Part shown: positions 1,091 to 6,901 of the stretch, in pieces
How the letters are laid out: every line of letters starts with the position of its first letter
How positions within the stretch are numbered: the first letter of the stretch is position 1
IMG/VR virus record: IMGVR_UViG_3300022758_000088
Coordinates: 1-6,901 of that record
Origin: a virus
Strand: one strand, 5' to 3'
Length of the DNA: 6,901 nt
The notes under the pieces: generated by a model
The model's input: the letters and a program-made list of their open reading frames with translations, nothing else
The model's database searches: none
What the model was told of the DNA's origin: nothing
Translations under genes and position numbers: made by a program

Positions 1091-1490
1091 CCTCCGCTGT
1101 GACCTCGCGATACCGGCTCGCGAGTCGGACACTACGTGTCCTCCCGGGAATAGACTTTTGTCCATTTGCTCGCCTAGCTCGGTCACGCCAACGCACGATG
1201 GATTCTTCGAATCCAGTAGGATGGGGTGTCACTTTTGCATAGTAAGGACGAGAGAGTTGAATCGATGAAGGTAACATCGATTCCCTTCGGGCAAAAGTGT
1301 AGGCTTCACTAACGTAATGGATGTTTACGGGTCAGCTTCGCTGACGGCGTGGACCGTGGTTAACATAATGCAAGGGGAAGAGCGCCGCAAGAGCAAGACA
1401 CTATACTCAAGGGCGCTAGGATGTTTACCGGATTCCGAGACTCGCTACGCTCGCTCTCTCACTCGGTTAACGGTGCCTTCGGCAGTAGTT
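1091..1490 (-). other. GC-rich, hairpin-dense non-coding island. It could be a structured ssDNA origin or a structured RNA. Family unrecognised.
   Basis: Hand count gives 214/400 G+C (53.5%), against roughly 35-43% in spot-checked coding lines and 18% in the adjacent tract. All three minus-strand frames have stops between 1467 and about 1280. At least 10 local hairpins are present, many of them perfect palindromes, plus long-range complementarities (1230-1238/1291-1299, 1099-1104/1181-1186, 1250-1256/1454-1460). Confidence 0.65.
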
Positions 1491-3834: not shown

Positions 3835-5736
3835 TTAATAAGGCATACCATCATAGTCGAAGTTCCGGACAGCCTTAACATCCAGATACAACGAAGACAA
3901 AAACTGATCAGTATCCATCGAACTGTCAGCAGCAACTTTAAAGATACTGTCCAAAACGGACGGATTTACTTTAAAGAAACCATAATTCAGCGAATACGTA
4001 GGAAGAGACTCACCGGGGGAAATAGTAGAAGTCACCCATTTAGAAAGATACTCAGGATCAAGCGGAGCAACCCAGGACTTCAAAGTAGAACGGAAAGCTC
4101 CGTACACTTCGTCATAGTCGGTCTTTAAATCAATAAATCGAGGGGTGTAACCCATAACCGATCCGGTAGGATCAGAAGCAAATGTATCAGACTTGTAATT
4201 AAAGAACCTACCAAAATGAAGCGACTGCATACCAATAGAATCAAATTCCGGGAAGGGAAGATCGGCAGTATTGGTATATAAAAGCTCCTGAGGCTGGCCG
4301 GTAATCACATAATCCAAAAGAGGAACCACATGGTAAATAGCCATCAGAATACCATATTCATCAGAAGAGAAATTTACTCCTCCTTGGCCGGAACCAACAC
4401 CTTTACCTTTAATAATAGCAGAGGCATTTTGTTCGGCTTCAGGAAGATAAGTATTAACTACTTCTGAAATATCAATATTGGAGGCGGATCCTCCAACACG
4501 GAAGCAAGTGTCAGAAAGAGCCGGAGACAAAGTCACACCAAAATGAGCATAAATCTGATCACGGGCAGTCTGATCAGCAACCTGAGAAACCTCGCGATAG
4601 CGCTGAACGGTTTCAGCCATACGAAGCTGGAGAACGGTAAACGAGGCCTGAAGAGAAGGATTAGAAATAATAGTCTTAAGAATAGCGCTATCAGGCTGAC
4701 GAGTGGGCATCAAATTGTATTCACCAGTACTAGAACCAGTAACCTTATTCATAGCAATCTGGCCAGTAATGTCAACATCTCCAGTAGCAGATACGCCGAC
4801 AACATTTCCAATAAGGTTTGAAGGAGTCGCAGAACTGGGTATAACATCCACAACAGAAACATCGCCTAACTGGGAATTAGGCATAACTCCCATAAAAAGG
4901 TCTTTCGGCCAGTTGGCATAACGAAGAGTAAAAAGATTGTTACCTGTTATATATTCCTTTAAAGCAGCTAAATCAGAAGTAAAAGAATTAAAAATATTAC
5001 CTCCGGAATACCAATCAAAATTATAGGTATAAGGTTCATTTTGTTCCCATTGAGAAATCCTGAAATGATCTGCATAAATTTTCTGATAAGCAGCAAAAGG
5101 CAAAACATTAACAGAATAGTGAGTATTAATTCCCTGAAGAGAAAAATCAGGAGACTCAGACAAACCTAAACTAAGATAACCAGCACCAGCAGGAGGAGTA
5201 TATTCAGCAGGAAAAAAATTACCATAACGAAGCATCATAGCAAGCTTAGCACCACAAGTACCCGCGTTAAATCCAAAGAAATTTACAACAGGACTAATAC
5301 CAGCAGATGCATTACCATAATACATATCCCAAAGAACAAGCCAAAGATTATAACCTAAACCAGCGGAATGTGCACCAAGAACAGTATAGGGAATATCATT
5401 AGTGACGATCTTGTTTGTACCAATTCCAGATGCCTGGACAGGATTATTCTGCATATTCATAAGAGCCTGAGGAAGGTTCTTATTAATAAGACGCAACGGT
5501 ACAAAATACCAGTCCAAATACTCACGGATACGGGTATACGCAGCTGTATTCACAGGCTGTGTACGGGTAAACAACTGATGACGAATATTGAATTTGTCAC
5601 CGGGATAAACCAGTTTGTAATAAACTGGCAACAGTTCACCAGCCTTACTAGTGAAACAGATACGACGAGAAAGATCGAAACCGGACCTGTGAGGATGATT
5701 CCGAACATCTCCATAAGAAAATAAATTTGAAGCCAT
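3835..5736 (-). CDS. VP1: Major capsid protein VP1 (633 aa), Microviridae F-like
   Basis: The N-terminus is MASNLFSYGDVRNHPHRSGFDLSRRICFTSKAGELLPVYYKLVYPGDKFNI...FTRTQPVNTAAYTRIREYLDWYFVPLRL. This matches the conserved start of Alpavirinae-type microvirus capsid proteins as I remember them. It is the longest ORF and is uninterrupted. Confidence 0.95.
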   Translation of the reverse strand: MASNLFSYGDVRNHPHRSGFDLSRRICFTSKAGELLPVYYKLVYPGDKFNIRHQLFTRTQPVNTAAYTRIREYLDWYFVPLRLINKNLPQALMNMQNNPVQASGIGTNKIVTNDIPYTVLGAHSAGLGYNLWLVLWDMYYGNASAGISPVVNFFGFNAGTCGAKLAMMLRYGNFFPAEYTPPAGAGYLSLGLSESPDFSLQGINTHYSVNVLPFAAYQKIYADHFRISQWEQNEPYTYNFDWYSGGNIFNSFTSDLAALKEYITGNNLFTLRYANWPKDLFMGVMPNSQLGDVSVVDVIPSSATPSNLIGNVVGVSATGDVDITGQIAMNKVTGSSTGEYNLMPTRQPDSAILKTIISNPSLQASFTVLQLRMAETVQRYREVSQVADQTARDQIYAHFGVTLSPALSDTCFRVGGSASNIDISEVVNTYLPEAEQNASAIIKGKGVGSGQGGVNFSSDEYGILMAIYHVVPLLDYVITGQPQELLYTNTADLPFPEFDSIGMQSLHFGRFFNYKSDTFASDPTGSVMGYTPRFIDLKTDYDEVYGAFRSTLKSWVAPLDPEYLSKWVTSTISPGESLPTYSLNYGFFKVNPSVLDSIFKVAADSSMDTDQFLSSLYLDVKAVRNFDYDGMPY

Positions 5737-5741
5737 AAAAT

Positions 5742-5963
5742 TTAAGTTTCGCGATAATAGATATCGCCTAAATTAACAACTGAATAAAAGGATTCTGCAT
5801 AATGAAAATCCGAAAGGATCTGATTCAGTTTCGCAACCTTATGAGAAAACTCCGTAAAAGATCGAGCATTCAAATAAATCTCAGTCACAAGATAAAACTG
5901 ATTGTCTTCGAGCATATTGGAAGACTGATACAAATACGCTTTGTAAGGACGACGACTAGACAT
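5742..5963 (-). CDS. Hypothetical small protein (73 aa) between VP4 and VP1
   Basis: Its ATG (5963..5961) overlaps the VP4 stop in the arrangement ATGTCTAG (8-nt overlap), and it ends 5 nt before the VP1 ATG. The N-terminus is mildly basic (MSSRRPYKAY). No homolog recognised. Confidence 0.55.
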   Translation of the reverse strand: MSSRRPYKAYLYQSSNMLEDNQFYLVTEIYLNARSFTEFSHKVAKLNQILSDFHYAESFYSVVNLGDIYYRET

Positions 5964-6901
5964 TATAATTGGCTCTCTCCGTAAAGAAATTATTCATATC
6001 ATTAAGATGACGATGTTTCACCTTCGAATGCACAAGAGCAGAAAGTTTCGTACGACAAACAGAACCTAATCCGGATTCTGCGAATTCTCTTTGTCTTTCT
6101 TCGGTCTGATTCCAAAAAATATCCGACCAATCGCTCTCAAAAGCCTGAGAATCTGAAAAAAGATCGTGGAGGCTTTGTTTTTCTCTAACATCAAAAAATT
6201 CTTTAGATAACTTAATAGCGGAATAAATCCTATCATAATCTACTCGCGGAGAGAAAAGAGAGAATCCCATCGAAGACAAGAATCTCTCACAATGACGGAA
6301 AAATATGTAAAAACGACTGCAAAAAGATCGCTCAAAAAATTCATCACCAAGAGCACCTCGGGTAGGATCAATATGAAGAAACTGCATAATATCGATCATA
6401 ACAGAATCTCCAGAAAGCTCTTTCACTGTCTCGCTCTGTCTGTCAGACGCGTAGTAATGCTGATAGATGAGCCGGGGGATACAGAAGAGGGAGGATTTCC
6501 AGTAGGCTGGCCGCTGGCAGATATTCCGAGCATGTCGTAATACCTCAACATATTCAGATACAGTACGACGGCCGTGTGCGACGGGTCGAAAAAAGCAGGT
6601 ATCGATAATCGAGCTCCATGGCCGAATAACTCTATATTTGCCATTGACCGGCACGCTGACTCCATCAAGGAGCTTAGAAAAATTTCCCTTCCTACCTTCT
6701 TCAATGGAAGGCGAAAAGAACTGAAATCCAAAGTGGTTAGAGAATCGTGCAAAAGGACGAATGCAGCGATTTTCTTTGAAATGTAAGGGAAGAGACGTAA
6801 AACTATTAAGATATCCCGCAACGTACGACTCAGCCTGTCCTCGGGACGTAGAGCAATCGACACGTCCAAATTTCCAACATGAATTAACAACTCGGATAAA
6901 A
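5956..6901 (-). CDS. VP4: Replication initiator protein VP4, C-terminal part. The 6775-6901 portion duplicates codons already counted in 1-127. The full gene is 783..1 plus 6774..5956, giving 533 aa.
   Basis: The frame is open from the junction (…LHFK|ENRCIRPFARFSNHFGFQFFSPSIEEGRKGNFSKLLDGVS) into the 232-aa track ORF 5956..6654. The M at the start of that track ORF is really an internal GTG (Val) codon. 6774-5956+1 = 819 nt, or 273 codons including the TAG at 5958..5956. Confidence 0.88.
   Translation of the reverse strand, partial: FIRVVNSCWKFGRVDCSTSRGQAESYVAGYLNSFTSLPLHFKENRCIRPFARFSNHFGFQFFSPSIEEGRKGNFSKLLDGVSVPVNGKYRVIRPWSSIIDTCFFRPVAHGRRTVSEYVEVLRHARNICQRPAYWKSSLFCIPRLIYQHYYASDRQSETVKELSGDSVMIDIMQFLHIDPTRGALGDEFFERSFCSRFYIFFRHCERFLSSMGFSLFSPRVDYDRIYSAIKLSKEFFDVREKQSLHDLFSDSQAFESDWSDIFWNQTEERQREFAESGLGSVCRTKLSALVHSKVKHRHLNDMNNFFTERANYNV
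6775..6901. repeat. Second copy of the terminal redundancy (duplicate of 1-127)
   Basis: Identical to 1-127, as described for the first copy. Confidence 0.97.

Follow-up and report, generated by a model that had tools for sequence, protein, structure and literature searches.

How the complementary strand is started in microviruses outside the phiX174/G4 group is, to our knowledge, not known. These viruses are among the most abundant phages of the human gut, and the replication and transcription machinery of Bacteroidales hosts differs from that of E. coli. The question is raised by a block at positions 1091–1490 of the IMG/VR virus record IMGVR_UViG_3300022758_000088, of which a stretch of 6,901 nucleotides (nt), hereafter the window, was analyzed. 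An original prediction described six mini-hairpins in this block, each with a G-N-A triloop closed by a C:G pair (C-GNA-G) and all on the virion-sense strand, and proposed a function at the level of single-stranded DNA (ssDNA) such as a complementary-strand origin. We found that the hairpins belong to a conserved, modular, non-coding element whose structure is under selection. Because of the analogy with G4, phiX174, and RSF1010 ssiA, and the elimination of other cis functions, the favored reading, to which we give about even chances, is that the block serves a clade of gut microviruses associated with Bacteroidales as their complementary-strand (minus-strand) origin, or single-strand initiation signal.

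C-GNA-G hairpins on the virion strand

The window has an exact terminal redundancy of 127 nt (1–127 = 6775–6901), giving a circular genome of 6,774 nt opened inside rep. The minus strand of the window carries all of the credible genes. Since Microviridae package the strand with mRNA sense, the minus strand is, by this family rule, the virion strand. This coding strand is T-rich (35% T versus 25% A). In minus-strand gene order, the C-GNA-G block lies between the capsid-to-pilot gene block and rep. Rep, the capsid protein, and the pilot protein are the only recognizable proteins of this microvirus, and no primase or polymerase gene is found among its genes. The closest GenBank records are microviruses from lemur and rodent feces. 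The host probably belongs to the Bacteroidales, because relatives of the capsid protein are present as prophages in Xylanibacter and in one Bacteroidales metagenome-assembled genome (MAG).

Direct re-reading places the six hairpins exactly at 1127–1141, 1199–1215, 1283–1291, 1331–1345, 1444–1450, and 1474–1484, all as C-GNA-G triloops on the minus strand, and the plus strand of 1091–1490 has zero C-GNA-G hairpins. Among the perfect palindromes with 3-nt loops in the block, all four with stems of at least 4 bp, and five of the eight with stems of at least 3 bp, are C-GNA-G on the minus strand; the remaining three are weak 3-bp matches containing AT pairs. The claim that so many GNA loops exceed chance holds: in 20,000 dinucleotide-preserving shuffles of 1091–1490, the mean number of C-GNA-G hairpins (stem of at least 3 bp) is 0.156 and the maximum is 3, so that none reaches the observed 5. 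In the rest of the genome (6.4 kb), the same perfect-palindrome scan finds only two C-GNA-G hairpins, each on the minus strand. Both of them, ACAC-GGA-GTGT (742–752) and ATTC-GCA-GAAT (6075–6085), are located inside rep.

The apex at 1444–1450 should be noted. GC-GTA-GC is a genuine hairpin apex but has only 2 bp as originally cited; the fuller stem is CGAGC-GTA-GCGAG with tandem G·A mismatches, and relatives have clean 5-bp stems at this position (CGGAC-GAA-GTCCG and CGAAC-GGA-GTTCG). The two loop-proximal pairs are G-C/C-G (GC..GC or CC..GG) in the hairpins at 1283–1291, 1331–1345, 1444–1450, and 1474–1484. At 1127–1141 and 1199–1215, the second pair from the loop is A-T or T-A, and the stems are longer there. 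On the plus strand the loops read TNC, for which we know of no merit, and direct reading agrees with the earlier statement that the plus-strand register is incompatible with a C(UUCG)G tetraloop. The element forms a GC island (~52% GC versus ~38% for the genome), and the adjacent tract that had been described as low in GC (990–1090) has 17.8% GC.

A modular element and the selection on its structure

The same element was recovered at 62 loci, representing 56 distinct sequences, in gut microviruses of humans, lemurs, and rodents by BLAST, by scanning IMG/VR twice for exact patterns, and by a scan of metagenome contigs. The carrier contigs are of microvirus size (~6.3–7.2 kb), shorter fragments thereof, or tandem-genome contigs of up to 13.6 kb; metagenome matches on long contigs were set aside as unrelated AT-rich chance matches. 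In annotated GenBank relatives the slot of the element is constant: read along the virion strand, the pilot-side small open reading frames (ORFs) come first, then the element, and then an AT-rich tract, a small ORF, and rep.

The element consists of three modules, M1, M2, and M3 (Table 1). M2 and M3 are present in every carrier, and in IMG/VR exactly the same 21 contigs have both; M1 is present, partial, or absent. The extent given in the original prediction was thus understated, since the unit is a modular element of 300–700 nt with an obligate core at ~1219–1490. The cited hairpins at 1127–1141 and 1199–1215 are real but belong to M1, and are missing from many relatives. Inserts of 0, 13, 67, 147, or 225 nt are found between M2 and M3 in relatives, and they are built of hairpins such as AGACC-GAA-GGTCT, GGC-GAA-GCC, and CCGACC-ACA-GGTCGG. 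The GNA bias, the fate of which in homologous regions had been named as a check on the prediction, persists in ~60 relatives and their extra cassettes.

The M2 block occurs twice in three contigs, L116 (12,801 nt), L169 (12,938 nt), and L126 (7,473 nt). In L116 the first copy is accompanied by the 225-nt insert and the second by a short spacing. The double-M2 contigs point to tandem genomes or to assemblies joining two variants. Three independent IMG/VR contigs (L185, L188, and L191) were considered as close relatives without the element and were rejected, since they are truncated at its borders, ending at 496–737 and 1421–1524 of the reference contig L189. The assembly breaks at the element are perhaps due to cassette polymorphism or to hairpin-related loss of coverage.

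Over 39 complete carriers, the identity is 0.75–0.86 across 1201–1500, 0.86–0.90 in the HUH-motif stretch of rep, and 0.05 in the orf114 region; the obligate core is as conserved as the coding sequence of the Rep catalytic motif, the identity of the element reaching 0.84–0.86. M3 is 80–85% identical where the capsid proteins share just 55–59% identity. Peromfec virus RodF7_5 is a distant relative that shares only M2; TGTCACTTTTGCATA is unchanged in it, as are the 9-bp outer stem of M2 and TGTCAC...CATA next to this stem, all of which are invariant among the relatives. The element appears to be confined to its clade in the searches made. The M3 pattern is absent from 185,579 bacterial species genomes, plasmid BLAST with the element gives no match at E up to 0.01, and distant-mode BLAST against 50,697 phage records including G4 and phiX174 gives only six records, all of the element's own clade. 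No description of the element was found in the literature searched, nor any paper linking mini-hairpins with Microviridae.

The invariant unpaired motifs and the 85% conservation far exceed what termination needs. This bears on the explanation that the hairpin cluster acts as a terminator or insulator of transcription between the late operon and rep, or serves ssDNA in a non-priming role as a decoy for nucleases or defense or in genome condensation. The position at the end of the capsid-to-pilot gene block, the many stable hairpins, and the gain and loss of cassettes are in line with such roles; however, a terminator scan of 700–2300 for intrinsic terminators (a GC-rich hairpin plus a T run) found none and left the hairpin at 1493–1515 uncalled. 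We consider this explanation unlikely.

The hairpins are under selection, because their stems carry compensatory changes. A hand-written structure of eight helices for M3 was counted on an alignment of 53 sequences: 93.2% of the cells are paired and 12 pairs are changed on both sides, with none of 500 shuffles scoring as high and slid controls giving 26–41% paired. The 3-bp helix Hc, which flanks hairpin Hh, covaries from A-T to C-G. In helix Hb, the 3′ arm (1419–1430) pairs with TTAACCG (~1464–1470), and two columns are compensatory with CG and GC swapped. In helix Hd, 31 of 52 sequences have C·A in one column. Six differing self-complementary stem versions are found among relatives for the second hairpin of M2; the M2 pairs were read by eye, the MAFFT alignment being out of structural register (GAA versus GAAT).

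The loops discriminate between the strands, because perfect Watson–Crick stems fold on both. Among the distinct perfect triloop hairpins in the family, the C-G-closed loops are GAA (13), GTA (6), GGA (5), and GCA (1), and four-base variants GAAT, GTAT, and GGAT are also found. At orthologous hairpins, counted by hand over an unresolved phylogeny, the middle base has changed ~12 times, G1 ~3 times (to A), and A3 0 times (P = 2.9e-4 under equal rates). According to the review by Hirao, GNA alone among the 64 triloops in GCNNNGC gives a DNA mini-hairpin, which is held by a sheared G·A pair with stability in the order A > G > C > T at the middle position; GAAB tetraloops are tolerated (PMC13037366). 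The DNA mini-hairpin melts at 76.5 °C, whereas r(GCGAAAGC) melts at 39 °C, and DNA mini-hairpins bind single-stranded DNA-binding protein (SSB) poorly (PMC13037366). The loop pattern in the family, with G1 and A3 fixed and N free, matches this published rule for DNA and not an RNA loop class, judging from the sequences.

A gene-sense RNA is a minor but real possibility as the active form. The element would then act as a folded non-coding RNA, or as a long folded 3′ untranslated region or 5′ leader, reached by read-through from the late operon or located ahead of rep, with roles in mRNA stability, processing, rep regulation, or host-factor binding. The hairpins are on the transcribed-sense strand between two gene blocks, 300–700 nt is a typical size of large phage-associated structured RNAs, and covariation alone cannot separate DNA from RNA. 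Moreover, the folding of 1091–1490 is better than that of shuffled sequences for either strand under either energy set, and the strongest z-score (−4.75) is that of the minus strand as RNA. On the other hand, C-GNA-G triloops are the stability optimum of DNA, and their RNA versions are far less stable (PMC13037366). No GNRA or UNCG tetraloops are seen among the conserved apical loops. In the M3 helices, G·T pairs (18) are not in excess over A·C pairs (47), unlike in typical structured RNAs. A call of the strand from wobble pairs was dropped, the independent events being too few. Rfam 15 gives no match for the window at E up to 1 and, for five relatives, only three sub-threshold chance matches outside the element; a scan for tRNA and tmRNA gives none. 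In addition, a hairpin conserved in position abuts the 5′ side of the element, so that a promoter would have no space there, and the element shows no evident promoter of its own. The invariant CACTTTTG was considered as a Bacteroides −7 box (TAnnTTTG) and dropped, as no conserved −33 partner was seen by eye.

A protein-coding block was also rejected. A 90-aa minus-strand ORF (1005–1277) and a 58-aa plus-strand ORF (1317–1493) overlap the block; no reading frame is open throughout the 56 M3 homologs, and the gain and loss of modules among relatives was counted against coding. Taken together, the evidence favors a structure selected in the virion-strand ssDNA. The ssDNA-level function in the original prediction is thus supported by the selection on structure, the strand-specific loops, and the DNA mini-hairpin pattern, while the complementary-strand origin itself is what we infer from them. 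Loop chemistry can computationally tell DNA-level from RNA-level structure on one shared strand.

Complementary-strand initiation as a candidate function

At the experimentally mapped complementary-strand origins of phiX174 and G4, there is one viral-strand mini-hairpin each. The viral strand of G4 has CGGC-GAAA-GCCG at 3975, inside the annotated RNA primer (3970–3997) and beside the annotated complementary-strand origin. The heptamer GCGAAGC, named for phiX174 in the original prediction, is confirmed at 2358 of its viral strand, within the F-G intergenic region, which holds a hairpin recognized by the primosome (PMC9865509). Mini-hairpins are listed also for St-1, alpha3, RSF1010 ssiA, and N4 promoters (PMC13037366). 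As a separate observation, phiX174 has CCCC-GAA-GGGG on the viral strand at 4331, ~25 nt downstream of the annotated viral-strand origin (4306).

The origins (oric) of G4, St-1, and alpha3 resemble the element in being non-coding, orientation-specific clusters of viral-strand hairpins with an extra-stable mini-hairpin (PMC13037366), for which the proposed role is keeping SSB off. The host phylum is different (Bacteroidales here), no sequence homology is found in distant-mode BLAST, and the G4 origin has one mini-hairpin whereas this element has 5 to ~10 within 300–700 nt. The G4 origin is ~140 nt with three hairpins, and the phiX174 primosome assembly site is ~55 nt with a single hairpin. This n′/PriA site is similar to the element as an intergenic viral-strand hairpin region that starts the complementary strand (PMC9865509) and contains GCGAAGC, but it is a single hairpin and has no sequence similarity. 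Two traits are seen in the element: a GNA triloop with C:G closure on one strand, and a non-coding viral-strand cluster with a mini-hairpin, as in G4.

The single-strand origins of plasmids (sso; ssoA, ssoU, ssoT, and ssoW) and the filamentous ori(−) are also strongly folded, orientation-dependent, non-coding ssDNA in the range of 150–300 nt. They are Gram-positive or enterobacterial systems, unlike that of this element, and we know of no description of GNA capping as a hallmark of sso elements. No plasmid matches the element, and RSB and CS-6 motifs are not evident in it; a CS-6-like TAGCGC at ~1412–1417 sits in the stem of Hd and not in a terminal loop. The RNA polymerase of the host recognizes the sso types and makes the primer there, and these origins are tuned to their host (PMC5703833). 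In RSF1010 ssiA/ssiB and the promoters of the N4 virion RNA polymerase, a GNA mini-hairpin (CCGAAGG or GCGGAGC) stabilizes an ssDNA hairpin read by a primase or polymerase (PMC13037366). These are single hairpins of 30–40 nt served by a dedicated plasmid or phage enzyme, whereas this microvirus encodes none. Conserved compensatory hairpins are also found in the non-coding region by rep of the uncultured reekeekee- and roodoodoo-microviruses, and have been proposed, without proof, as minus-strand initiation sites (PMC9865509). They differ from the element in being one or two simple hairpins of 13–64 nt with no DNA-specific loop signature reported (PMC9865509).

In the proposed mechanism, host SSB would coat the circular virion strand after entry, and the hairpins capped by C-GNA-G (and GAAT) would resist melting and keep ~300–400 nt folded and free of SSB, by analogy with the mini-hairpins above. 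The stability and the poor SSB binding were published for model oligonucleotides of other sequences than this element (PMC13037366). The fold would expose the CACTTTTGC/GCAAAAGTG stem with the pyrimidine-rich strand, the internal loop of AGTGAGAG and GGAATC, and the two copies of GTAAACATCC, all of which are conserved in the alignments. A host priming enzyme (a primase, a PriA-type primosome, or RNA polymerase) might recognize these features and make an RNA primer, and DNA polymerase would then convert the genome to the double-stranded replicative form. The optional cassettes may merely widen the SSB-free platform. We infer DNA, rather than RNA, as the active form, as well as the exclusion of SSB, the acting enzyme, and the priming site.

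The position of GTAAACATCC should be noted, since it relates to another function. This sequence is present as two exact direct repeats 100 nt apart, each directly 3′ of a helix, together with an inverted partial copy. The repeats and the inverted copy could be protein sites in a Rep-dependent viral-strand (double-strand) origin or a Rep-binding (iteron) region; the element is located upstream of rep, and its invariant sequences suggest sequence-specific recognition by a protein. However, GNA loops restricted to one strand on ~10 hairpins would not be explained by such an origin, and a better candidate is found inside rep. The most conserved 30-mer of the genome, at 6114–6143 on the minus strand, is 0.993 identical across 39 genomes. 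Within this 30-mer, the 25-mer GAGCGATTGGTCGGATATTTTTTGG is unchanged in 66 of 73 instances, among them a divergent rodent-virus relative, and contains G-ATATT, which is shared with the phiX174 nick site CTTG/ATATTAAT, likewise inside the rep gene. We therefore take 6114–6143 as a candidate viral-strand origin, and a Rep origin in the element as very unlikely.

The inverted copy also suggests a recombination substrate. The folded virion strand might be recognized by XerC/D, as attP(+) of the CTX phage is, and integrate at the host dif site. For Bacteroidetes microviruses, integration via dif-like sites upstream of rep has been proposed, and some of them have an additional, inverted site (PMC3091885). 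In M3, TTATGTTAACC can pair with the GTAAACAT repeats. It lies within ATTATGTTAACC (1358–1369) and matches 10 of 11 positions of the XerD arm in the consensus of bacterial dif. Against this, a full dif-like site (28 bp: XerC arm, 6-bp spacer, and XerD arm) is absent from the element; the sole segment of the window with 22 of 28 dif matches lies elsewhere, at 5747; and the Bacteroidales-type site TCCTATAATTTGTATTATGATAAAT is absent from the window, being partial in carriers only in the AT-rich tract of rodent viruses. The carriers show no sign of lysogeny, because the element is found in 0 of 185,579 species genomes and the true metagenome matches are all on short phage-sized contigs. Integration through the element is thus extremely unlikely in our judgment.

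Dif-like sites of the TCCTATAATTTGTATTATGATAAAT type flank Bacteroidales microvirus prophages on their minus strands ~6.5 kb apart, in L226 (4713 and 11241) and L198 (2895 and 9470). Rodent-virus relatives have partial copies (L002 1380, L003 1384, L004 1385, and L005 1410) in the AT-rich tract that adjoins the element, and there is no recognizable copy in the window and most human and lemur carriers. The pattern of these sites suggests that this lineage does not integrate via them.

Several observations weigh against a complementary-strand origin. The folded strand is also the mRNA-sense strand, so that the covariation would fit a transcript just as well; DNA is favored only by the loop chemistry and by the absence of a G·U excess. 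The wobble count comprises few independent events, 31 of the 47 A·C pairs coming from one C·A column that would be G·U on the plus strand. With ViennaRNA DNA energies the minus strand has no advantage (−75.2 versus −77.3 kcal/mol); this energy set probably has no bonus terms for GNA loops. Distant microviruses (capsid identity of 41% or less) are mostly without GNA clusters, and their hairpin loops are mostly non-GNA. M1 and the internal cassettes are dispensable, and a conserved start triplet for primase (CTG or CTA) is not identifiable in the alignment. Known minus-strand origins of microviruses are ~55–140 nt, so that the element, at 300–700 nt, exceeds them several-fold.

With these points taken into account, the element could just as well be as not be a large, modular form of single-strand initiation signal without sequence relatives outside its clade, by analogy with the systems above. 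An alternative goes beyond a priming site: an autonomously folding "structured DNA" domain several hundred nt long and made of mini-hairpin cassettes that are added and removed. This is quite unlikely; such a domain might act in several ways on the genome as it enters, and its roles might include exclusion of SSB, recruitment of the host replisome, or a shield or decoy against ssDNA-sensing nucleases or defense. If it is true, strand-asymmetric GNA capping could mark DNA-level function computationally across ssDNA replicons. For complementary-strand initiation, the element provides a sharply bounded, highly conserved candidate in which G1 and A3 of the loops, the invariant stem, and the pair of repeats offer clear targets for mutation, and a defined Bacteroidales single-strand initiation signal would be useful for ssDNA or rolling-circle vectors in these hosts.

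Features of the element and its surroundings

The features are listed in Table 1 in the direction of the virion strand within each module.

Table 1 Features of the element, its flanks, and the genes of the window
Feature	Position	Strand	Remarks
Whole GC-rich non-coding structured element (M1 + M2 + M3)	1091–1490	minus	GC island, folding, homology in ~60 microvirus contigs
Module M3, obligate core part	1308–1490	minus	Eight helices, three GNA-triloop-capped; covariation, conservation
Hairpin Ha, TGCC-GAA-GGCA	1474–1484	minus	Relatives: TGTCC and TGTGC stems; loops GAA, GTA, GCA, GGA, one ACA
AGTGAGAG, invariant, unpaired	1454–1463	minus	Invariant alignment columns
Hairpin Hh, CGAGC-GTA-GCGAG, tandem G·A mismatches	1441–1453	minus	Relatives: CGGAC-GAA-GTCCG, CGGAC-GTA-GTCCG, CGAAC-GGA-GTTCG
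GGAATC	1431–1436	minus	Makes conserved internal loop with AGTGAGAG
Direct repeat copy 1, CGGTAAACATCC	1419–1430	minus	Doubles as 3′ arm of helix Hb
Helix Hd (AGCGCC / GGCGCT) around hairpin He (GAGTA..TGCTC)	1381–1418	minus	
ATTATGTTAACC (helix Hi)	1358–1369	minus	Inverted partial copy of GTAAACAT repeat, XerD-arm-like
Hairpin Hf, GTCAGC-GAA-GCTGAC	1331–1345	minus	Relatives: GTCAAC/GTTGAC (n = 39), GTCAATC/GATTGAC (n = 1), GGA loop (n = 2)
Direct repeat copy 2, CCGTAAACATCC	1319–1330	minus	Directly 3′ of Hf; invariant columns
Module M2, obligate core part	1219–1307	minus	Invariant 9-bp outer stem with enclosed hairpins
M2 outer stem, 9 bp, CACTTTTGC with GCAAAAGTG	1291–1299 with 1230–1238	minus	Invariant
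CCC-GAA-GGG	1283–1291	minus	Enclosed by M2 outer stem
Hairpin AATCGATG/CATCGATT within M2	1260–1282	minus	Covarying
Unpaired pyrimidine-rich strand, 21 nt	1239–1259	minus	Runs into M2 outer stem
Module M1, optional	1091–1218	minus	Four hairpins
M1 hairpin TGGATTC-GAA-GAATCCA	1199–1215	minus	
M1 hairpin ATGGAC-AAAA-GTCTAT	1150–1165	minus	
M1 hairpin GGACAC-GTA-GTGTCC	1127–1141	minus	Relatives: stems GGACCC/GGGTCC, GGACGC/GCGTCC
M1 hairpin CTCGCGA-GCCGGTA-TCGCGAG	1104–1124	minus	
Flanking 10-bp perfect hairpin ATACGTCTTC-AAA-GAAGACGTAT	1493–1515	minus	Overlaps 3′ part of orf114, just 5′ of element
AT-rich tract between element and orf64/rep	990–1090	minus	17.8% GC; outside folded element
Rep, 533 aa	783 across junction to 5956	minus	Pfam REP_ORF2-G2P match; HUH-type family
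Major capsid protein	5736–3835	minus	Pfam Phage_F match
Pilot protein	3419–2220	minus	PHROG pilot families match
Scaffold-sized ORF		minus	
Four small ORFs		minus	No family match

In M3, ATTATGTTAACC is complementary to both GTAAACAT repeats with one A·A mismatch, so that alternative pairings are possible. In most relatives the position of the flanking hairpin at 1493–1515 is occupied by an unrelated hairpin, AGGGCTG-TTTTTA-CAGCCCT. This flanking hairpin may be a terminator or a boundary element.

GNA-capped hairpins are also found in non-coding DNA of other microviruses. In RodF7_5 (L005 1560–1970), the coding strand of the downstream non-coding DNA has three GCGTAGC, one GCGAAGC, and CCGAAGG, and the opposite strand has none of these. 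In a second clade (L207–L222; capsid ~30% identical), a non-homologous non-coding gap of ~500 nt upstream of rep (e.g. L211 3340–3790) has two long covarying coding-strand hairpins, each capped by GCGTAGC (GCGCAGC in L210). The stem of one of them, CATAATTTAA / TTAAATTATG, resembles a split dif core. Two non-homologous non-coding regions in related microviruses have coding-strand hairpins capped by GCGTAGC, GCGCAGC, or GCGAAGC, a recurrence that counts in favor of the proposed origin. A GNA rule for microviruses in general was rejected, since distant relatives are unbiased by strand (86 versus 79 GCGNAGC/CCGNAGG heptamers).

The sequences of orf114 (1501–1900) and of the capsid gene at 4601–4800 are nearly unalignable among the 39 element carriers (0.04–0.09 identical, except 0.39 at 4601–4700) and adjoin highly conserved DNA. 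The former looks like a swapped gene cassette, and the capsid stretch looks like a hypervariable surface loop.

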